DNA from: Pseudomonadota bacterium
GTDB taxonomy: Bacteria; Bdellovibrionota_F; JAHFAK01; JBDREC01
DNA: 64,000 nucleotides
Reading direction: 5' to 3'
Assembly (NCBI GenBank): GCA_043820105.1
Contig: JBDREC010000103.1
Coordinates: 15,405 to 79,404 of the forward strand
Below the pieces are notes generated by a model. It was given only the letters and a program-made list of their open reading frames with translations. It made no database searches and was not told where the DNA came from. Below are positions 43,528-63,138 of the stretch, piece by piece. Position 1 is the first letter of the stretch. Each line of letters begins with the position of its first letter. A program made the position numbers and the translations under genes.

Positions 43528-43751
43528 ATAAAACTATCTTAAAAATTAATAAAAGTTTATTTATTTATGTGACTATTACTATAAAATATCTTTAAGGAAG
43601 TAAATAGAATAATTATATAAACATAAAATATTATTAAAATAAGGCCTGCGGCTACAATTTTTATCAATATAATCAATTCCAATAGAATTTAAAATTTAGA
43701 ATTAATTGCCGGATAAAATAAATCATACGCTTGTTTTGTGTCTAGTTCTAG

Positions 43752-44557
43752 TTAGATTCTGCCTAAAAAGTGGGCAAAATAAATTGTAAAAAACTTCAGG
43801 ATTTTAAATGTCTTTATTTAAAAAACAATTTCATTATAAGTTAGATTATATTTTCCGCAATAATATTTATAGCAAAAAAGGCTGGAATATTACCTGTTTC
43901 AGCCCTCAATATCCACAAGCTAAACCAAGACGCTTTATATTAAAAGAAATCGCAGTAAAATAAAGCTGCAATCGAAAATTTAATTTCCCACGATATCTAC
44001 ATCTGCAAAAACCGTATCCTCTTTTCAATGCTGATATCGTTCCCTCAATCGCATTTCTATTTTTCATCTCTTCTTTATACTCATCTGTCTTCATCAACTT
44101 TCTTGCTTCATCATGATCGACTACTCTCTGTCGCCAGACTGATAACAATTGATAACTAAAACCTGCATATTCCAGGTCAAGCTCTAATGCAATTTTCCAG
44201 TCTAATCTAAATATCAGATTTTGAATCGTTTGCCTGTCAGGAAGCTTTTCCAGAAACTGTAATATTGTTACACACATTAATAACCTCGGTGACACTGGTG
44301 GTCTTCCACCTTCTTTATACATCTGTTCGAAATCAGTATCTAATATTTTGGGAAATATAAATTCATGACATACCTTCACATGATCTCTGATTTCTGGAAA
44401 CACATTTAACATGATACCCGCCTTGAATAATGATTGTTGATTGTACTTTGATAAGTCCTTTGGCATCTATATTATATAAGCATTATCTGCACTTTGTAAA
44501 GATCTTGAGCTTAATTATTTGCTTAATATTTTAGCCCACTTTTTAGGCAGAATCTAA
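43752..44557. mobile_element. Internally deleted IS5/IS1182-like element (approx 806 bp) with perfect 24-bp terminal inverted repeats
   Basis: TTAGATTCTGCCTAAAAAGTGGGC at 43752-43775 is the exact reverse complement of 44534-44557; encloses a transposase ORF lacking the catalytic core. Confidence 0.75.
43906..44466 (-). pseudogene. Truncated transposase: IS5/IS1182-like N-terminal domain fused to C-terminal tail, DDE core missing
   Basis: N-terminal GRPPVSPRLLMCVTILQFL ... (DUF772-like) joined to C-terminal AIEGTISALKRGYGFCRCRYRG ... NIKRL; only 186 aa. Confidence 0.6.
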
Positions 44558-44712
44558 TTAAATTTTAAACCTATATCTTTGTAAATTGTTATTAAATTTT
44601 TAGTTTTGCTCTGACCCTAAAATTCCCAAAATTCCAACCATAAAATTCTGACCAAAATTTAAAAATTATTCTAAAATTATTGGCAATTGTAGAATGTCAA
44701 ATCCTAATCATA

Positions 44713-45000: not shown

Positions 45001-45301
45001 AATTACCACCTTTATAACTGAATAACGCTGAGAAGATACGCAACAGTTAGTAGCTTTTCATACTTACTTCTATTAATCTTTAACCTGATAGGTTACCTAT
45101 TTTAGTTATCACCTCGTGTGTGGGTTCTAATGCATGTGACCGAACAAACACTTAGGAAATAGAATTAAACTATGCAAAACCAAAAATATTGTCAATGTGG
45201 AATATTGTCAATTATATTTTCTTCACTAACTGAGCAGGTAGTAGTTATGGGACTGACATGCGTATTAATAATCAAGATTATGCATTAGAAAAAAATTCAA
45301 A

Positions 45302-45320
45302 GGGGTCAGGCCTTGACAAT
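45302..45320 (+). repeat. REP-like element copy (GGGGTCAGGCCTTGACA core) upstream of RAYT gene
   Basis: Same core at 45397-45420 (direct) and 46567-46588 (inverted). Confidence 0.5.
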
Positions 45321-45396
45321 AGACAACAAATCAATAATTTTACTGAAAAATATAGCTAACTTTTGAAAATACATGAAATTATCAATATTAGAAATA

Positions 45397-45420
45397 GGGG
45401 GGGGGCAGGCCTTGACATTC
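45397..45420 (+). repeat. REP-like element copy (GGGGGCAGGCCTTGACATTC) upstream of RAYT gene
   Basis: Core CAGGCCTTGACA shared with 45302-45320 and the inverted copy at 46567-46588. Confidence 0.5.
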
Positions 45421-45589
45421 GGCAGCAGGTTCCCTTTTATACAAAGTGTTTTTTTCCTTTAATTCTTTTTCTTTCTCCATTTTTAAGACAAATCTATAAA
45501 GACTTTGAGCTACTGAAGCATTATTAATTGAACTCTGTTTGAATATTAAGCTCCATATATTTAGGAACTAATCAATTTAGGGGTAATTT

Positions 45590-46582
45590 ATGCCTAGACC
45601 TAAAAGAATTGAATATGAAGGTGCTTGGTATCACGTCATGAATAGAGGTGCTAGCAAGAAAAACATTTTTCATTCACATGATGACAGGAACTTTTTTTTA
45701 AAAATGCTAGCGCATGTCAGTGATCAATGGAATTTTCAGACACATGCCTATTGTTTAATGACAAATCATTATCATTTGCTTGTGCATACACCAAATCTTG
45801 GCTTGTCAGAAAGTATGCGACATCTTTCTTCAATTTATACAATGAGATATAATAAGAAATATAAAAGGGATGGAGCATTGTTTAGAGGTAGATTCAAATC
45901 AATATTGTTAGATAGGGATGATTGTGCATCAGCAATATTAAGATACATTCACCAAAATCCCGTAAAGGCAGGTTTATGTAAAAATGTAGAATCATACAAG
46001 TGGTCTAGTCACAGAGCATATTTAAATGAAAAAAATAAACCGTCATTTCTATATACAGATGAGATATTGAAAGATTTTGCAAAGATTAGTTCTAAGGCAA
46101 GGCGAAAATTGCATGAGTTTGTGACTGGAAGAGAATCTAAAGATTTTATTAACTCTATAGAAGGGCCAAGACCTGTATCTGTAATGGGATCAGAGGGTTT
46201 TAGAGATTGGATAAAAGATAATTATTTATATAAAGTAAACAAAGATAAGTTAATTTCAACAGCAAGAAGTAATAAGCGCCCTGAAATTATACCAAAGCAA
46301 ATGTTATCATATGTTAGCTCTGAATTCAGTGTCAGTAAAAAAAGCATTATGGAAAATAAGTCTGGATCCATTGCAAATATACCAAGACTGACATATTTAT
46401 ATTTATTGCATAAAATTGCAGGTTTTACACATAATGAAATCGCTGAGATAAGCAAATCAGGAAACAAAGCTTCAGTAGCTCAAAACATTTATCGTTTTTC
46501 AAGGAGATTGGAAGAGGATGAATGTTTGGGCGAAAGGATTAAAGGTATGAAGGGGAATTTGTTGTCGAATGTCAAGGCCTGA
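45590..46582 (+). CDS. REP-associated tyrosine transposase (IS200-like HuH Y1 transposase) with C-terminal HTH-like extension
   Basis: YHVMNRG N-terminus, HuH motif HYHLLVH, catalytic Tyr context RYIHQNPVKAGL; flanked by inverted REP-like repeats. Confidence 0.7.
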   Translation: MPRPKRIEYEGAWYHVMNRGASKKNIFHSHDDRNFFLKMLAHVSDQWNFQTHAYCLMTNHYHLLVHTPNLGLSESMRHLSSIYTMRYNKKYKRDGALFRGRFKSILLDRDDCASAILRYIHQNPVKAGLCKNVESYKWSSHRAYLNEKNKPSFLYTDEILKDFAKISSKARRKLHEFVTGRESKDFINSIEGPRPVSVMGSEGFRDWIKDNYLYKVNKDKLISTARSNKRPEIIPKQMLSYVSSEFSVSKKSIMENKSGSIANIPRLTYLYLLHKIAGFTHNEIAEISKSGNKASVAQNIYRFSRRLEEDECLGERIKGMKGNLLSNVKA

Positions 46583-46588
46583 CCCCTC
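46567..46588 (-). repeat. REP-like element copy in inverted orientation immediately downstream of RAYT gene
   Basis: GAATGTCAAGGCCTGACCCCTC is the reverse complement of the upstream REP core; overlaps the RAYT stop region. Confidence 0.5.
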
Positions 46589-48590: not shown

Positions 48591-48794
48591 TCACCCAATC
48601 CCAAACCTCTTAATCTTATTAAACAAAGTCTTTCGACTTATCCCCAAATCATCAGCGGTCTTTGTCCTATTATCAAAATTATCTTTAAGCCTTTCAACAA
48701 TTATTTTCTTTTCATTGAATTCAGCAAAATCGTTGCAAGTGATAGCTGTAAAACTTGATGCATCATTGTTTTTTATTCTTAGGGGTAGGTGCAT
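48591..48794 (-). pseudogene. Fragment encoding only a Fis-type HTH (C-terminal end of an NtrC-family activator)
   Basis: TADDLGISRKTLFNKIKRFGI matches the C-terminal HTH of sigma-54 activators; no AAA+ domain upstream. Confidence 0.45.
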
Positions 48795-48878
48795 TAGATC
48801 TAACTTGCAGCATTGGAATGTCGTTTCGTTTTTATTTTAGAAAGTAATACATGGGTTTTAAGGGGTGTTTTAAGGATA

Positions 48879-49050: not shown

Positions 49051-49260
49051 ATGACATTTCAGAAAAGATTGCTTTATTTGAGAAAAAGAAACTGCTTAAC
49101 GATTAGGCAGGTGAGTGAAAAATTGGGGGTTTCACAATCAACTTATTTTCAGTGGGAAGTTGAATCGTTTCCTACGAAGCCGGTTTATTATAAGATGTTG
49201 GCTATGCTTTATGAGTTGGATCTTGAGATGTTGATGTTTGGGGATAAAAAAGACTGTTAA
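49051..49260 (+). CDS. XRE-family helix-turn-helix transcriptional regulator (69 aa)
   Basis: LTIRQVSEKLGVSQSTYFQWE HTH pattern; GAGG RBS; its 3' portion is duplicated at 50752-50890. Confidence 0.6.
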   Translation: MTFQKRLLYLRKRNCLTIRQVSEKLGVSQSTYFQWEVESFPTKPVYYKMLAMLYELDLEMLMFGDKKDC

Positions 49261-49338
49261 TTTGAATTGTTTTATATTATTATTTATTCCAATTAATTAT
49301 AACAATTTAAACTTAAGTTTATGCATATGGAGCTAATA

Positions 49339-50748
49339 ATGACCAAAAAAGAACTGGATTTAATTTTACATGAAGGGGAAAACTATAAAATCGAGTTCAA
49401 AGAAAATGTTAACTCTGATTTGTCAAAAGAAATGGTTGCTATGGCAAATTCATCTGGAGGTAGGATATTTATTGGGATTAATGATAAAAACGAAGTAATA
49501 GGTGTGAAAGCAACAAATGCTTTGTTATCTAAAATTCAGAATATGGCCCAGGATTGTGATCCCTCAATTATTATCAACATTAATACTTATAAAAATATTT
49601 TAATTATTAATGTTAAAGAAGGTTTAAATAAACCATATCGCTGTAGTAAAGGTTTTTATACTAGGAATGGTTCAAATTCACAGAAAATGACAACCAGAGA
49701 GATAACTGAATTTGTGCAAGCAGAAGGTAATGTTAGGTTTGATGAAAAGCTTCGGGAAGATATAAATATAAGTAAAAAAATTAAAAAAGAACTGCTTAAT
49801 CATTATTTGCAATTAGCAAACATTAATAAGACAATGGATGATGAATTTATACTAGAAAATTTAGGAGTACTGGAGCAAAAGAATAAGAAATCATATCTTA
49901 ATAATGCTGGGCTATTGTTTTTTTGCGATTCTACTAACCCACATCTTCATTATGCAAATATTACTTGTGCTTTATACAAGGGCAGTGAAAAGCTAAATGT
50001 TTTGGACAGAAAAGATTTTTCATCTGATATAATTTCTAATATCGAAGATACCATGTTGTTTTTGAAAAAGCATTTAAATCTTAGATATGAAATAACATCA
50101 TTAAGAAGAAAGGAAATTCTTGAGCTGCCTGAAGTTGCTTTGCGTGAAGCAGTAGTCAACGCTGCTTGCCACAGAGACTATTTTGAAAAAGGTGCCAATA
50201 TTATGGTTGAGATATTTGATGATAGGGTCCAAATAACTAACCCTGGTGGATTGCCTAAAGGCTTGTTACCAGAAAAATTTGGAACCAGAAGCGTATCAAG
50301 AAATCCTTTAATCACTTCATTGTTCCATCGTGTTGGCTACATTGAAAAAATGGGAACAGGTATAGGTAGAATAAGAAAGTCCCTCAAGGAATCAGGTAAT
50401 TCAGAAGCTGTATTTGAATATGACAGTTTTTTTTCAGTGATATTTAAAAGATCTATCTTAGAAAATGGAGCTAGTTCAGACATACAAGTTACCGGACAAG
50501 TCACCGGACAAGTTCCCGAACATGTCACCAAACTACTTAGTATATGCAAAGGAGAGTTGTCTCGTAGTGAATTGCAGGATATATTAAAATTAAAGCACAG
50601 AGAGAACTTTGTGAATTTATATCTAAACCCAGCATTGGAATCTGCTTTTATCGAAATGACAATTCCAGGCAAACCAAGATCAAGCAAACAAAAATACCGC
50701 TTAACAAAAAAAGGGAAAGATTATTTAAAGAAACTGCCTGAAAATTAA
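49339..50748 (+). CDS. Schlafen/AlbA_2-like domain protein with HATPase_c_4-like domain and C-terminal wHTH (COG2865-type regulator)
   Basis: N-terminal KELDLILHEGENYKIEFKE ... ANSSGGRIFIGIND; central REAVVNAACHRDYF ... NPGGLP ... SRNPLI ... MGTGIGRI; VTGQVTGQV linker repeat; start at ATG 49339 with GGAG RBS. Confidence 0.6.
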   Translation: MTKKELDLILHEGENYKIEFKENVNSDLSKEMVAMANSSGGRIFIGINDKNEVIGVKATNALLSKIQNMAQDCDPSIIININTYKNILIINVKEGLNKPYRCSKGFYTRNGSNSQKMTTREITEFVQAEGNVRFDEKLREDINISKKIKKELLNHYLQLANINKTMDDEFILENLGVLEQKNKKSYLNNAGLLFFCDSTNPHLHYANITCALYKGSEKLNVLDRKDFSSDIISNIEDTMLFLKKHLNLRYEITSLRRKEILELPEVALREAVVNAACHRDYFEKGANIMVEIFDDRVQITNPGGLPKGLLPEKFGTRSVSRNPLITSLFHRVGYIEKMGTGIGRIRKSLKESGNSEAVFEYDSFFSVIFKRSILENGASSDIQVTGQVTGQVPEHVTKLLSICKGELSRSELQDILKLKHRENFVNLYLNPALESAFIEMTIPGKPRSSKQKYRLTKKGKDYLKKLPEN

Positions 50749-50752
50749 GCAC

Positions 50753-50890
50753 GTGAGTGAACGAATAGGTGTTTCGCAGTCAACTTATTTCCAGTGGGAG
50801 GTTGAATCGTTTCCAACGAAGCCGGTTTATTATAAGATGCTGGCTAAGCTTTATGGGTTTGATGTTGATAGGTTGATGTTTGGGGGGTGA
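50753..50890 (+). pseudogene. Duplicated 3' fragment of the xre-like gene (approx 85% identical to 49100-49260)
   Basis: Direct nucleotide comparison; begins right after the Schlafen-like gene stop; lacks the 5' part of the HTH. Confidence 0.55.
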
Positions 50891-56306: not shown

Positions 56307-58727
56307 ATGATTAACAAAGGAAAACTGGTGAATATGATGGATACTAAATATGGTTTTTCACATTTGCATTTGCATACCCAATATAGTCTGCTGGATTCAA
56401 CAATAAAAATAAGTGATCTTATAGAAACAGTTAAAAAACTAGACATGGACTCTGTAGCAATTACAGACCATGGAAATCTTATGGGAGCGATTGAATTCTA
56501 CAAGGAAGCAAAAAAACAGGATATAAAAGCAATTATAGGCTCTGAGGTTTATATTGCACAAACTGGGCGTTTTGATAAAAGTACAAAACTGCATCATCAT
56601 CTTGTTCTGCTCGCGGAAAACAATACTGGGTACATTAATCTCATAAAACTTGTCAGCATAGGATATACAGAAGGATATTATAATGTCCCAAGAATAGACA
56701 ACGAAGTTTTAAGGCAACATTCTGAAGGACTAATAGGACTATCTGGTTGTATGGGTGGAGAAATTCCGCATTACATTTTAAGAGATGAACTTTCCACAGC
56801 AATTAAAGCTGCAATGGAATATAAAACAATTTTTGGAGCTGAAGCATTTTATCTTGAACTTCTGGAAACAGGATTGTCAGGTCAGAAAAAAGTAAATGAC
56901 GGACTTATTCATATATCAAAAGAATGTAACATTCCCCTTGTTGCTACTAACAATTGTCATTATTTAAAAAAAGAAGAGCATCAGGTTCATGCAGTTTTAT
57001 CGTGTATTCAAGCAGGGAAAACATTAGATGAAATCGAAATTGAAACTGATCAGCTATATCTGAAATCAGCACATGAAATGCTGGACCTTTTCAAGGATCA
57101 TCCTGAAGCAATCCAAAACACAAAGAAAATTGCAGACAGATGCAACGTAGAAATTGAACTTGGCAGGAAACAGCTGCCTCATTTTCAGACACCGGAAAAA
57201 ATTTCTCATGCAGCTTTTCTTGAAAAACTTGCCTTTGAAGGATTGGATATGAGATTTGACACAATTATAAGCGATAGGAACATATCAAAATACACTAAGA
57301 GATTGAAACATGAACTTGAAGTTATAAATAACAAAGGATTTGCTGCATATTTCCTTGTGGTCTGGGATTATGTAAAATATGCCATGGAAGCAGGGATTCC
57401 AGTGGGACCTGGAAGAGGTTCCTCTCCAGGTTGTCTTGTTGCTTATTTGCTAGGAATAACAGACATTGATCCGGTAAGATACAGCCTGCATTTTGAAAGG
57501 TTTCTGAATCCTGACAGGGATATATTGCCTGATTTTGATATAGACTTCGGCTACGATCAAAGGGATGAAGTTATAGAATACATTACAAAAAAGTGTGGGA
57601 AAAACAAGGTATCCAAAATAATAACATATGTAACTTTCAGAGCAAGAAGTGTCATCAGGGATGTAGGAAGAGCTCTTAATATTCCATATGACGAGGTTGA
57701 TAAGGTAGTAAAGCTTTTATCTGAATTTTTTGATATGAGTCTTGAAAGAGCATTAGAGCTTAAACCAGAACTTAATAAAATACATGAAAAAAACAAAATA
57801 TACCAGGATCTAATTAGGTTTTCATTCACATTAGAGGGACTTAAGCGTCACACAGGTGTTCATACATGTGGCATTGTAATATCTCCAAAAGCACTTACCC
57901 AATATATTCCATTATATTGCAACACATCTGGTGATCAGATAAGTCAGTTTACAAAAGATGAACTGGAAGATATAGGACTTGTAAAATTTGATATTCTTGG
58001 TCTTAAAGCATTAACCGTTTTGGATAATGCCTGTAAACTGATAAATAAAAATGGTGATGAAATATTTGATATAAAACAAATACTACATGATGATCCAAAA
58101 GTATTTGAACTGCTTACATCAGGAAACACATCAGGTGTTTTCCAGTTTGAAAGTTGTGGAATTAAGGATATCATAAAAAAGATAAAACCAGACTGTTTTG
58201 AAGATATAATTGCAGCTTACGCATTATACAGACCAGGTCCATTAGCCAGCGGCATGACAGAAGATTTTTGGAAAAGAAAACATGGACTCATTGCAAGCAA
58301 TTATCCACATCCAAAGCTTGAAGATATTTTAAAAGTAACATATGGAATTATTGTCTACCAGGAACAGATAATGGAAGCAGCTTCAAGAATTGCAGGATTG
58401 CCTTTTCAACAGGCGGATATTTTACGCAGAATAATGGGCAAGAAGAAAGCCAATCAAATAGAAAAGCAAAAGGAAATCTTCGTAGAAGGTGCCAGGAAAA
58501 ATGATATATCATATGAAAAAGCAAATGAGATATTTGATCTTTTAGAATATTATTCAGGATACGGTTTCAACAAGGCACATGCTGCAGCTTATGCATTGAT
58601 CTCATACAGATGCGCATATCTTAAATGTCATTATCCTATGGAATATTCTGCAGCCTTAATATCTTCAGAAAAAGATAACCCTGAAAAGGCATTGAGATAT
58701 CTTAAGGAATGGAAAAGCATGAATTAA
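56307..58727 (+). CDS. dnaE: DNA polymerase III alpha subunit (DnaE), C-terminally truncated: PHP domain and polymerase core only (806 aa)
   Basis: PHP motif FSHLHLHTQYSLLD; polymerase-core GYGFNKAHAAAYALISYRCAYLKCHYP; ends about 45 residues after this motif, where a full-length DnaE would continue for several hundred residues. Confidence 0.7.
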   Translation: MINKGKLVNMMDTKYGFSHLHLHTQYSLLDSTIKISDLIETVKKLDMDSVAITDHGNLMGAIEFYKEAKKQDIKAIIGSEVYIAQTGRFDKSTKLHHHLVLLAENNTGYINLIKLVSIGYTEGYYNVPRIDNEVLRQHSEGLIGLSGCMGGEIPHYILRDELSTAIKAAMEYKTIFGAEAFYLELLETGLSGQKKVNDGLIHISKECNIPLVATNNCHYLKKEEHQVHAVLSCIQAGKTLDEIEIETDQLYLKSAHEMLDLFKDHPEAIQNTKKIADRCNVEIELGRKQLPHFQTPEKISHAAFLEKLAFEGLDMRFDTIISDRNISKYTKRLKHELEVINNKGFAAYFLVVWDYVKYAMEAGIPVGPGRGSSPGCLVAYLLGITDIDPVRYSLHFERFLNPDRDILPDFDIDFGYDQRDEVIEYITKKCGKNKVSKIITYVTFRARSVIRDVGRALNIPYDEVDKVVKLLSEFFDMSLERALELKPELNKIHEKNKIYQDLIRFSFTLEGLKRHTGVHTCGIVISPKALTQYIPLYCNTSGDQISQFTKDELEDIGLVKFDILGLKALTVLDNACKLINKNGDEIFDIKQILHDDPKVFELLTSGNTSGVFQFESCGIKDIIKKIKPDCFEDIIAAYALYRPGPLASGMTEDFWKRKHGLIASNYPHPKLEDILKVTYGIIVYQEQIMEAASRIAGLPFQQADILRRIMGKKKANQIEKQKEIFVEGARKNDISYEKANEIFDLLEYYSGYGFNKAHAAAYALISYRCAYLKCHYPMEYSAALISSEKDNPEKALRYLKEWKSMN

Positions 58728-58778
58728 AAGATCAACTATGACAAATTGCACACATAAATCTCATCAGGACAGAGATAT

Positions 58779-60727: not shown

Positions 60728-62083
60728 ATGAACAAAAAAGAACTAGACTTCATTATTAAACAAGGTGAAGGTCAGCATATAGAGTTTAAAGAATCTTTTG
60801 ATAAATCTCTTGTTAAAGAAATAATTGCTTTTGCAAATGCTCAAGGGGGCAGGATTTATTTAGGGATAAATGACAAAGGACTAATAAAAGAAATTAATAT
60901 TACAAATTCCTTGAAATCTCAAATTCAGGATATTGCTAAAAATTGTGATCCTTCAATTCTTGTCAATTTAAGTGCATATAAGAATATATTAATTGTTAAT
61001 GTTCATGAAGGAAATGACAAACCTTATTCTTGTTCAAGTGGATTCTATTTAAGGATGGGAGCAAATACACAAAAGTTAACGCGAGATGAAATCATGCAAT
61101 TTGCCATTTCCGAAGGAAAAAAACTGTTTGATGAGCAAATTTGTGATGATTTTGTTTTTTTAGATGATTTTGATGAAGATAAACTGAAAAGTTACTTAAA
61201 AGAAGCAAAAATTGAAAGCGAGCTTGATAATAAATCAATCCTTTTAAACCTTGGTGTTGCAAAACTTATAAATAAGCAATTCAAATTTACGAATGCTGGG
61301 ATACTATTTTTTGCAAAAAAACCTTCAAAATATTTTATGACAACAAAGGTAGTTTGTGCTGAATATGCAACAAACGAAAAAGTTAAAATATTAGATCGTA
61401 AGATTTATGATGAGGGTATTTTAAAAAACCTAAAAAATGCAATTAACTTTATAAGTAAAAGAATTAAAATAGAATTTGAAATTAAATCTGCTAAAAGAAA
61501 GGAAATCCCACAATTTCCAGAGGAAGCTTTTAGAGAAGCAGTTGTTAATGCCATAATGCATAGAGATTATTTTGATAAAACCTCTGAAATTATGATTGAA
61601 TGTTACAGGAATAAAATTGTTGTTTATAATCCCGGAGGACTTGTCAAATGGTTAAGACCCGAAGAATTTGGAAAAATTAGTAAACTTAGAAACCCTTTAA
61701 TTGCTTCACTTTTATCAAGAACAATATATGCTGAAAAAATGGGAACTGGCATAAAAAGAATGAATAAGGCTATGATCAAAGCCGGATTGAAAGAGCCTGC
61801 TTATGAATATTATGACACTTCTTTTTATACACAATTTGATGATAAAAATATCGAAAAAAGAAAAGGGAAAAGTTCGGTGAAAAGTTCGGTAAAAAGTACG
61901 GTGAAAAGTTCGGTGAAAATTCTTAATCTTATTAAAAAAGATGCATATATTACAATTCCAGAAATCGCTAAAACCCTAAATTTAACAACAAGAGCAATTG
62001 AAAAGCAAATAGCAAACTTAAAAAAAACAGGCAAAATAAAAAGAATTGGCCCTGACAAAGGCGGATATTGGGAGGAATTATGA
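60728..62083 (+). CDS. Schlafen/AlbA_2-like domain protein with HATPase_c_4-like domain and wHTH (paralogue 2)
   Basis: KELDFIIKQGEGQHIEFKE ... ANAQGGRIYLGIND; REAVVNAIMHRDYF ... NPGGL ... RNPLIA ... MGTGIKRM; KSSVKSSVKSTVKSSVK linker from a 15-bp tandem repeat. Confidence 0.6.
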   Translation: MNKKELDFIIKQGEGQHIEFKESFDKSLVKEIIAFANAQGGRIYLGINDKGLIKEINITNSLKSQIQDIAKNCDPSILVNLSAYKNILIVNVHEGNDKPYSCSSGFYLRMGANTQKLTRDEIMQFAISEGKKLFDEQICDDFVFLDDFDEDKLKSYLKEAKIESELDNKSILLNLGVAKLINKQFKFTNAGILFFAKKPSKYFMTTKVVCAEYATNEKVKILDRKIYDEGILKNLKNAINFISKRIKIEFEIKSAKRKEIPQFPEEAFREAVVNAIMHRDYFDKTSEIMIECYRNKIVVYNPGGLVKWLRPEEFGKISKLRNPLIASLLSRTIYAEKMGTGIKRMNKAMIKAGLKEPAYEYYDTSFYTQFDDKNIEKRKGKSSVKSSVKSTVKSSVKILNLIKKDAYITIPEIAKTLNLTTRAIEKQIANLKKTGKIKRIGPDKGGYWEEL

Positions 62084-63138
62084 AGGCCACCAAAGAATCC
62101 AATCCTACCTATCAGAATGCAATTACCATAGTTGAGATATTTCTTTATTTAAAGCAGTTTCCAAGAGGTGTTTTATCATCTCAAATACAAGAGGAATATT
62201 ATCAGGATAAGGATGACAGGACCTTTCATAGAGTTAAAAAAGCCCTGGAAGATTTTCTTTTTGATCCTCAAGGTGATAAGGTATTCTTTTTTGAAGGCGA
62301 GGGTAAAAATCAGACTATACGCTTGCATCCAAAGCATTTTAATACCTCTGATGTAATGGAATGGCATCTCTTTGGTTTAATGATGTCCAATGTAATGATG
62401 ACCAACATCAAGGGTGATGTGGATTCCTCGCCTGATATTAAAAGCGGGGTGCTGCAATTGCGTGATCTTATTGTTAGTAATCTTGAAGCTGATTTTTATA
62501 AGAGTAATGCAGATGGTGAAATAAGCGAAGTTAGAGAAAATCTATTAAATAAAATTAAGAAGAAATATTACTGCAAGAAAGTTGGGCAGAAGATTTATGG
62601 CAAAGATGACAAATCAACTGAGATCCTTGATAAAATTACACAGGCTTTATATAAAGAAAACAAGCTAAAGATTCATAAGTATAAAAATGAAAAAAAGAAA
62701 GACTGGGTATTTTCACCTTATACACTTTTATCATATAATGATGCCTTTTATGTAATGGGAAAGCTTGCAAAGGGCTATATGCTTACCCTTGCTATTGACC
62801 GGATTGATGAGCTTGAAGTTTTGAAGAAAACCTTTAATTATCCCAAAGACTATCATCCCTCAGAGATTCTCAATAAAGGCTTTGGAGTAGGGGACGTGAA
62901 TCAGGAGGCTGTTAAAGTTGAGCTCTTGTTTGACCAGGCTGTTTCCTATCTAATCACAGAACGTTTTTGGCATCATTCACAAATGATTACAGAAAAAGAA
63001 GATGGTTCTGTTTTACTGGAAATGGAAGTGCCTGACAGCTTTGAGTTAAGAAAGTTTGTTTTGAGTTTTGGGTCAAATGTGAAAGCATTAGCGCCAGATT
63101 CGCTTGGACAATTTATTAAAGAAGATAAGAGCAAATAG
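62080..63138 (+). CDS. WYL-domain transcriptional regulator (wHTH-WYL-WCX; BrxR/CapW/PafBC-like)
   Basis: N-terminal wHTH, central WVFSPYTLLSYNDAFYVMGK WYL-like segment, C-terminal WCX-like region; start ATG 62080 overlaps upstream stop as ATGA. Confidence 0.5.
   Translation: MKATKESNPTYQNAITIVEIFLYLKQFPRGVLSSQIQEEYYQDKDDRTFHRVKKALEDFLFDPQGDKVFFFEGEGKNQTIRLHPKHFNTSDVMEWHLFGLMMSNVMMTNIKGDVDSSPDIKSGVLQLRDLIVSNLEADFYKSNADGEISEVRENLLNKIKKKYYCKKVGQKIYGKDDKSTEILDKITQALYKENKLKIHKYKNEKKKDWVFSPYTLLSYNDAFYVMGKLAKGYMLTLAIDRIDELEVLKKTFNYPKDYHPSEILNKGFGVGDVNQEAVKVELLFDQAVSYLITERFWHHSQMITEKEDGSVLLEMEVPDSFELRKFVLSFGSNVKALAPDSLGQFIKEDKSK

Follow-up and report, generated by a model that had tools for sequence, protein, structure and literature searches.

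A gene for a Schlafen-like ATPase lies between an intact xre-like regulator gene and a 5′-truncated second xre copy in a 64,000-nucleotide (nt) stretch of contig JBDREC010000103.1 (assembly GCA_043820105.1; hereafter, the window), which comes from a metagenome-assembled genome (MAG) labelled Pseudomonadota bacterium. The two xre copies share an ungapped direct repeat of 159 nt, of which 136 positions (85.5%) are identical. With moderate confidence, we consider this repeat to be the recombination scar, without any demonstrated function, of an additive insertion-duplication, in which one-sided homologous recombination was combined with a microhomology join. On our best reading, the locus carries a scar and no dedicated cassette system.

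Direct repeat of xre sequence on both sides of the ATPase gene

The locus consists of the following features.

49051–49260, forward strand: intact xre gene, 69 amino acids (aa), HTH_3/HTH_19 (list of open reading frames (ORFs); Pfam; GenBank MFH1729771.1, equal to P0002)
49085–49243, forward strand: left repeat copy, xre codons 12–65 (repeat finder, MAFFT, self-blastn)
49261–49338, forward strand: spacer of 78 nt between xre and the ATPase gene, with an imperfect inverted repeat (49261–49281 / 49291–49311)
49339–50748, forward strand: ATPase gene with SLFN_AlbA_2, HATPase_c_4 and Fic-like_C, 469 aa as annotated (Pfam; identity to P0003)
50727–50737, forward strand: junction of 11 nt, AAAGAAACTGC, identical in both copies, its first 7 nt being AAAGAAA
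50727–50885, forward strand: right repeat copy (repeat finder, MAFFT, self-blastn)
50729–50890, forward strand: 5′-truncated xre allele, codons 13–65 plus TGA (open frame, unannotated in GenBank)

All three methods agreed on the extent of the repeat, whose copies are spaced 1642 nt apart from start to start, and self-blastn ranked it as the strongest self-match of the whole window. A 38-nt pattern from its core was found at two sites only in the window and in none of 100 shuffled sequences, and a relaxed tblastn search detected no third xre-like copy in the window. Both boundaries of the repeat are abrupt.

A preliminary description of this DNA had placed part of xre on either side of the Schlafen-like gene at about 85% identity and had proposed a pairwise alignment; the alignment confirmed the ungapped repeat and its identity, and extended its length from the estimated 140 bp or so to 159 nt. 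The right copy does not start immediately after the ATPase stop, as that description had it, but at 50727, approximately 21–22 nt before the end of the stop codon, and the duplicated part is not only the 3′ part of xre, the left copy running from codon 12 and covering about three quarters of the 210-nt gene. An apparent similarity further upstream of 49085 and 50727 was not significant even with gaps allowed, 389 of 2000 shuffles reaching the same score.

The two copies are diverged alleles

The left gene contains a full helix-turn-helix (HTH) domain (HTH_3, 25.8 bits against a Pfam cut-off of 23), encodes a product identical to MFH1729771.1, from a contig of 123,279 bp, and carries the C-terminal tail ELDLEMLMFGDKKDC. 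Its matches to RstR and to the VC1465 Xer activation factor (NCBIfam) were weak and far under both cut-offs, and these identities were rejected as generic HTH similarity. The right copy stays open without an internal stop or indel across 53 codons and ends with ...MFGG-TGA at 50888–50890. It is directly preceded by an in-frame TAA (50726–50728), lacks ATG and helix 1, and scores 18.8 bits with HTH_3, below the cut-off, spanning only profile positions 15–53 of 55. It is an HTH fragment and no member of the Xre family in its own right. GenBank gives it no locus tag: ABIA04_15270 is xre and ABIA04_15280 is the downstream 81-aa ORF, and the single tag left between them, 15275, is taken to be the ATPase gene.

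Over the 53 codons, synonymous divergence (dS) between the two copies was 0.50 and non-synonymous divergence (dN) 0.11, giving a dN/dS of 0.23 by the Nei–Gojobori method, a signature of purifying selection. In codons 26–51 (26 codons) there were seven synonymous changes and no non-synonymous change; with 16.7 synonymous among 78 sites, the probability that all seven fall on synonymous sites by chance is approximately 2 × 10⁻⁵. A neutrally drifting, 5′-truncated copy would gain mostly non-synonymous changes. Because the divergence is mainly synonymous, both copies appear to have evolved as working genes during most of the time since they separated and to have been brought together later; that is, they are probably two diverged functional xre alleles that were joined, and not an in-place duplication that decayed. 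The latter could have arisen at the insertion, for example by replication template switching, the right copy then decaying neutrally, and the near-identical repeats at two other ATPase loci described below, L010 (98–99%) and L002 (97% over 180 nt), could be fresh duplications of this kind. For the window, we give this explanation scarcely any weight, since the seven central changes are all synonymous and neither stops nor indels occur across the 53 codons at a dS of 0.5.

The open frame raises the alternative that the right copy is functional. A possible GTG start is found at 50753, 5 nt past the ATPase stop, and termination–reinitiation there would yield either a 45-aa truncated Xre that modulates the full-length repressor or a bridge ORF that keeps translation going into the DNA downstream. 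In keeping with this, three less conservative changes lie in the 5′ part upstream of the GTG, residues 26–51 are 100% conserved, and the downstream copies of L025 and L010 also lie in ORFs that start 0–30 nt from the ATPase stop. However, no Shine–Dalgarno-like sequence precedes the GTG, the fragment lacks half of helix 2 in addition to helix 1 and stays below the Pfam cut-off, no gene starts at its stop codon, GenBank leaves it unannotated, and the equivalent copy at L077 contains a stop codon; we regard a function as very unlikely.

The G+C content at third codon positions (GC3) of the xre copies (49051–49260 and 50729–50890) was 0.43–0.48, against 0.18–0.25 in most neighbouring genes, the window as a whole having 31% G+C. 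By this measure the composition of the xre alleles appears foreign and that of the ATPase gene less so, and the high GC3 of the xre alleles suggests that they came from a shared mobile pool.

Junction at the end of the ATPase gene

The ATPase product is assigned to the AlbA_2/HATPase_c_4 'Schlafen-like' ATPases by the presence of the three defining domains, all scoring over the Pfam cut-off (PF04326, 76.6 bits; PF13749, 80.3 bits; PF21247, 86.4 bits), Fic-like_C being its C-terminal winged-helix domain. The longest ORF starts at 49321, the annotated one at 49339, and the stop codon TAA is at 50746–50748. Eleven homologues end with ...KGRxxLxK, and the window protein has KGKDYLKK followed by LPEN, which is derived from xre; because the homologues end where the window protein has KGKDYLKK, the ATPase is essentially complete.

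The right repeat copy begins within the ATPase ORF and takes in its final six codons (K K L P E N). The two lysine codons lie within the 7 nt that are common to the ATPase's own end, and LPEN and the stop codon come from xre read in another frame. AAAGAAA encodes the native terminal L-K-K of the ATPase and matches xre codons 12–14. Judged from this overlap, the join is a 7-nt microhomology on the native last codons of the ATPase gene.

The protein is also a domain chimera, residues 1–370 being 74% identical to the subgroup that ends in HTH_24 and the last 95 residues 58% identical to the Fic-like_C subgroup. The inverted repeat in the spacer could be an operator or promoter region; a scan for promoters and terminators was uninformative, giving fewer promoter-like matches than shuffled sequence.

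A third xre allele in the same MAG

The sole close relative of xre among approximately 15 billion proteins (word-indexed search) was P0001 (MFH1729947.1, 65 aa), encoded on a 39,545-bp contig of the same MAG, and in a HMMER search of 1.84 billion representatives the P0001 cluster alone matched xre at high identity. Residues 1–54 of P0001 are identical to the left copy, and its C-terminal tail resembles that of the right copy (GFDVERLMFGG versus GFDVDRLMFGG). At the 12 positions where left and right copies differ, P0001 shows the pattern LLLLLLRRRLRR (permutation, p = 0.015), which makes it a mosaic of the two. Any crossover between the repeats would generate an intact 65-aa xre, and a predicted crossover at 49205–49213 gives a protein identical to P0001 at 64 of 65 residues. 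P0001 is unlikely to be just an empty-site version of the window locus: its contig encodes no twin of at least 90% identity for any of the proteins flanking that locus, and for the 81-aa neighbour no homologue turned up at all.

The preliminary description had suggested a search for further xre copies flanking cargo genes. There is none elsewhere in the window, and the MAG contains the one paralogue. Among GTDB representative genomes only a 37%-identical Dyadobacter gene, located beside insertion sequence (IS) elements, was found, and JGI metagenomes and viral contigs yielded no xre relatives. The best HMMER matches to the 69-aa protein outside this MAG were P0137–P0140, proteins of 650–1000 aa with 8–11 tandem Xre-type HTH units and 28–40% identity to xre.

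The same layout recurs around related ATPase genes

Bracketing direct repeats were detected at the ATPase genes of L002 and L010, and 80 further metagenome loci were then added. In 72 non-redundant loci, the ATPase genes were screened for flanking repeats with a minimum length of 60 nt, with the neighbouring ORFs of at least 200 aa in the same loci as control.

Minimum flank of 300 nt per side: ATPase genes 6/55, neighbouring ORFs 0/140, Fisher p = 4 × 10⁻⁴
Minimum flank of 1000 nt per side: ATPase genes 6/34, neighbouring ORFs 0/106, Fisher p = 1.4 × 10⁻⁴

Repeats therefore bracket 11–18% of the non-redundant ATPase genes and none of the neighbours. In every case, the repeated sequence is 80–340 nt located upstream of the ATPase unit, with a gap of 0 to about 500 nt between its end and the ATPase start codon. 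The second copy lies 90–290 nt past the ATPase stop in the other loci (978 nt in L080). Boundaries are abrupt on both sides, and identities range from 77% to 99%. The origin of the repeat was assigned as follows.

L025: 3′ end of hsdM, in the order hsdM, ATPase, hsdM 3′ fragment, hsdS, hsdR
L077: 3′ end of a DegT aminotransferase gene
L010: 3′ end of an AlbA_2 paralogue
L002: 3′ end of a convergent 283-aa gene
L032: tail of a GNAT gene

Coding repeats are 3′ ends of unrelated neighbouring genes. The strongly diverged hsdM pair of L025 is synonymous-biased (pS 0.52, pN 0.15), and the near-identical pairs hold too few changes for this bias to be judged. None of six inspected homologue loci has an xre gene on record beside the ATPase gene. 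The ATPase gene follows hsdR directly or a few genes on in three of the six, and a short HsdM_N-only ORF follows the ATPase gene in two (L003, L008, L011); that of L002 is near PglZ and NACHT genes. By these six loci, xre is not a usual partner of the ATPase. Because the repeats elsewhere derive from hsdM, DegT and other genes, the handle appears to be whatever DNA adjoins the ATPase gene upstream. ATPase genes lacking long repeats showed no excess of short exact direct repeats, and because of this there is no sign of a universal att core.

The recurrence also bears on the assembly. The window is taken from a MAG contig, and an assembler could have fused two strain variants. Such an artefact is extremely unlikely, as 11 identical bases were judged too short for a k-mer-based mis-join, both frames are coherent, and the same layout is present in independent assemblies, L080/L081 and L056/L057/L058 each coming from separate samples.

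Further observations were made on these loci. The downstream copy lies within an ORF that starts 0–30 nt from the ATPase stop in L025 (2842–3096), L010 (2291–2632) and the window (50753–50890), and that of L025 ends exactly at the start of hsdS; such ORFs could be bridge ORFs keeping translational coupling to the next gene. In L010 (2676–3008), the 3′ end of the ATPase gene (Fic-like_C) is repeated downstream as an orphan 110-aa ORF with 79% nt identity, and P0009 (L003/L004/L022) has two tandem Fic-like_C domains, which hints that C-terminal domains of the family are exchanged or duplicated. In L078, one 23-nt motif, AAAGTGCTGACGGAGTGAAGGAA, is found at both ends of the non-coding repeat (20–262 and 1942–2179) that flanks the ATPase gene, pointing to a longer repeated unit arrayed on either side of it.

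Proposed origin of the repeat

Insertion-duplication, by a single crossover of the Campbell type, and homology-facilitated illegitimate recombination (HFIR) occur in naturally transformable bacteria and leave the homologous segment as a direct repeat on either side of the heterologous DNA. Over the 3′ end of a gene, they leave one copy intact and the other 5′-truncated, and the non-homologous join uses a microhomology of a few bases. The window contains an insert between flanking anchor repeats, one intact and one 5′-truncated, and a microhomology at the join, and its repeat would join this known kind of recombination scar. The known cases differ in that they were defined experimentally with known donors.

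We propose that a segment of approximately 1.64 kb, consisting of the 3′ three quarters of one xre allele, the 78-nt spacer and the complete ATPase gene, was added to a recipient locus that would already have held a related xre allele, both xre copies being kept. One side would have been joined through xre–xre homology, and the ATPase end would have been joined to xre codon 12 through AAAGAAA. This could have taken place by circularisation of the donor fragment at the microhomology and a single Campbell-type crossover, or by HFIR with the illegitimate join falling upstream of the homologous anchor. The predicted product starts with an intact upstream gene whose tail is of the donor type, followed by the insert and then by a 5′-truncated resident copy ahead of the resident downstream DNA, the old xre 3′ part staying as a promoter-less fragment without helix 1. 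Such products break nothing and therefore would explain both their survival and why only the 3′ ends of genes appear duplicated. The synonymous-biased divergence and the mosaic P0001 fit diverged donor and recipient alleles. The repeats would still be substrates for RecA-mediated deletion, by which the ATPase gene would be lost as a 1642-bp unit and a 65-aa xre restored.

The preliminary description had taken the site for a cassette or recombination junction. The junction held up in its abrupt boundaries, its 7-nt microhomology and the diverged alleles, but no set of cargo genes with xre ends was found. Of the two origins then offered, insertion of the ATPase gene into an xre gene applies in a modified sense only, as xre is not interrupted (the left copy is full length and the ATPase gene complete) and the repeat, at a dS of 0.50, is no target-site duplication. 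Recombination between cassettes sharing xre ends comes closer, two or three xre alleles having clearly recombined, again with no xre-flanked set of cargo genes.

Several points weigh against an insertion-duplication. The sequence and direction of events, an intermediate of the circular or HFIR kind and the identity of the resident allele are inferred. A divergence of 14% between the repeats is high for an exchange that depends on RecA. Eleven identical nt at the edge of an 86%-identical repeat are not unusual by chance, and a 7-nt A-rich microhomology is weak evidence alone in a genome of 31% G+C. The position of the join exactly at the end of the ATPase ORF would be a coincidence, explained only through selection for an intact gene. 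Syntenic donor and recipient would be expected to recombine two-sidedly, which leaves no scar, and the observed 11–18% seems above expectation. This frequency leaves room for a process that inherently makes duplications. It is conceivable in this respect, but improbable in our view, that the AlbA_2/HATPase_c_4 genes are mobile single-gene cassettes, and that a dedicated and so far unrecognised process, carried out by the protein itself or by a recombinase in trans, targets the 3′ ends of unrelated genes and duplicates or replaces 80–340 nt of them. If this is true, the xre repeat of the window would be one att-like pair and not an accidental scar.

The main rival for the window assumes tandem modules, xre(A)–ATPase followed by xre(B), and a microhomology deletion from the ATPase stop codon to codon 12 of xre(B); in a variant, two related islands could have been integrated in tandem at tRNA-Leu. 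This would account equally well for the microhomology and the signature of purifying selection, for the abruptness of the left boundary and for homology that stops where the genes end, and it suits a region rich in truncated genes (the tRNA-Leu, sigma-54 regulator and dnaE fragments described below) in a MAG that has at least one more xre paralogue. On the other hand, it needs a separate recombination for the P0001 mosaic, the deletion must begin exactly at the ATPase stop codon, and the recurrence of the layout beside hsdM, DegT and other genes, where tandem paralogues are unexpected, is poorly explained. We consider this rival unlikely, though clearly to be reckoned with, and prefer the insertion-duplication.

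Comparison with known systems

A layout similar to that of the window locus is known from prophage e14 (and phage 21), whose integration in icd of E. coli leaves the 3′ pseudogene fragment icdC (PMC13626634). As in the window, direct repeats are formed by a gene that is intact on one side of the insert and a 3′ fragment displaced to its other side. The repeats have an abrupt 5′ boundary, at which 11 nt are identical, and homology continues up to the end of the ORF (icd–icdC alignment); recombination between the copies regenerates a chimeric intact gene. The differences concern size and equipment, e14 being 15.2 kb with its own integrase and excisionase and the window unit 1.64 kb with one ATPase gene and no recombinase, as well as identity (approximately 92% for icd/icdC, counted from the alignment, versus 86%) and target, which is a housekeeping gene for e14 and a small island-borne regulator in the window.

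The window locus could accordingly be seen as a miniature cassette of the e14 or phage 21 type, that is, a non-autonomous 1642-bp unit with the core AAAGAAACTGC, whose attP would supply the target gene with a new 3′ end, and an integrase encoded elsewhere and acting in trans. The bounding repeats are those expected of such an element, 11 identical nt are present at the 5′ boundary, and a 3′ fragment of tRNA-Leu at a distance of 113 nt places the locus near a likely integrated-element junction. By Pfam, neither the ATPase nor any of the nine neighbouring ORFs scanned has a recombinase domain, the ATPase gene is the only ORF with family matches between the repeats, other ATPase units lie at the 3′ ends of unrelated genes with no fixed target evident, no short conserved core surrounds the ATPase genes that lack long repeats, and a run of 11 identical bases is not rare at 86% identity. 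A miniature element of this kind is thus doubtful, and the scar of an insertion-duplication remains the reading that we favour.

Displaced 3′ fragments are also known from toxin genes. Orphan rhs-CT fragments are displaced 3′ pieces that have no translation initiation signals and keep part of the conserved upstream region, and in Salmonella rhs, recombination over a shared 522-bp block of 95% identity switches the expressed 3′ end (PMC3967940). The right xre copy resembles orphan rhs-CT and cdiA-CT pieces as a displaced 3′ fragment lacking initiation signals, and L010 has an orphan Fic-like_C end. Unlike rhs and cdiA, whose toxins vary in their C-terminal domain and are paired with an immunity protein, xre encodes a 69-aa regulator, and there is one displaced fragment only. 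With respect to an array of the Rhs or contact-dependent inhibition type, the displaced fragment is an HTH remnant, and no match to a toxic domain or immunity gene was found among the downstream ORFs.

The ATPase itself belongs to the same family as accessory defence genes in or beside type I restriction–modification (R-M) operons and defence islands (COG2865 type). Its homologues adjoin hsdR, hsdM, hsdS and PglZ, and the window gene sits beside an AbiU/AIPR gene; it is probably an accessory gene of the defence-island type.

Three other kinds of unit were considered and rejected. For an integron gene cassette, there is no inverted repeat or attC-like palindrome after the ATPase stop, the position being occupied by in-frame xre sequence, and no integrase in the nine neighbouring ORFs scanned. 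For a transposon or IS element with target-site duplication, the repeat is 159 nt, 14% diverged and under purifying selection, and the unit has neither terminal inverted repeats nor a transposase. For a Xer-dependent (dif or pdif) module, no dif-like site was found in the window with the E. coli-type consensus alone and up to 3 mismatches. A dedicated mechanism for scars linked to the ATPase genes is not claimed from the present data.

Genomic context

The following features surround the locus.

43749–44560: inverted-repeat pair of 33–34 nt, 94% identity, bracketing a DDE transposase fragment (43906–44466)
45301–46587: inverted-repeat pair of 31 nt, 94% identity, bracketing an IS200-like Y1 transposase gene (45590–46582)
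48594–48815, reverse strand: 3′ fragment of a sigma-54-dependent regulator gene, 74 codons, 88% aa identity to the C-terminus of P0127
48879–48938, reverse strand: 3′ fragment of tRNA-Leu(UAG), 60 nt (blastn to tRNA-Leu(tag) genes, ARAGORN-called references, alignment)
56307–58733, forward strand: truncated dnaE, equivalent of E. coli DnaE residues 6–811 of 1160
60728–63138, forward strand: second AlbA_2/HATPase_c_4 paralogue, HTH_24 C-terminus, overlapping the start of a WYL/WCX regulator gene

The tRNA-Leu fragment, which lacks the 5′ 22–25 nt, lies 113 nt upstream of the xre start. Rfam and ARAGORN do not call it, and no complete tRNA was found in the window. A plasmid search with the 2.9-kb region gave matches to tRNA-Leu genes only. 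The fragment probably marks one end of an integrated island, the locus being close to a likely element junction. A second displaced 3′ gene fragment, that of the sigma-54 regulator, lies approximately 240 nt from xre and is annotated as a 67-aa HTH protein; a full-length copy of the regulator (P0127, 448 aa) is on a different contig of the same MAG.

Downstream of the locus the order is the 81-aa and a 227-aa ORF, the AbiU/AIPR gene, truncated dnaE, a DUF2779 gene, the second AlbA_2 ATPase gene and the WYL regulator gene. The 81-aa and 227-aa ORFs had no family matches in Pfam, PADLOC, NCBIfam or PHROGs. The dnaE ORF stops at TAA where its homologues continue, similarity ending within a few bases at about residue 806–811; the C-terminal third is absent from the window, and the convergent DUF2779 gene comes next. 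The second ATPase gene, with the WYL regulator gene, is approximately 10 kb from the first, and no flanking direct repeats were found around it (60728–63138). The IS200-like Y1 transposase (45590–46582) has a twin of at least 90% on another contig. Taken together, the locus looks like part of a patchwork accessory region near an apparent integrated-element junction.

Implications

If the proposed origin is correct, the scar is legible base by base as the addition of a defence-island-type gene beside a regulator gene, with nothing broken. The addition is predicted to be simple to reverse: if the repeats recombined, the ATPase gene would be lost and xre would return to a 65-aa form, which is a form of the gene that the MAG does contain elsewhere. 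As a scar it is ordinary; the finding that may be new is that such scars are statistically linked to this ATPase family, for which a single literature search on COG2865 gave no report of flanking direct repeats. If the layout holds in complete genomes, such repeats could be used to recognise genes that were recently and additively gained by defence islands and R-M operons, and to tell donor alleles from recipient alleles.

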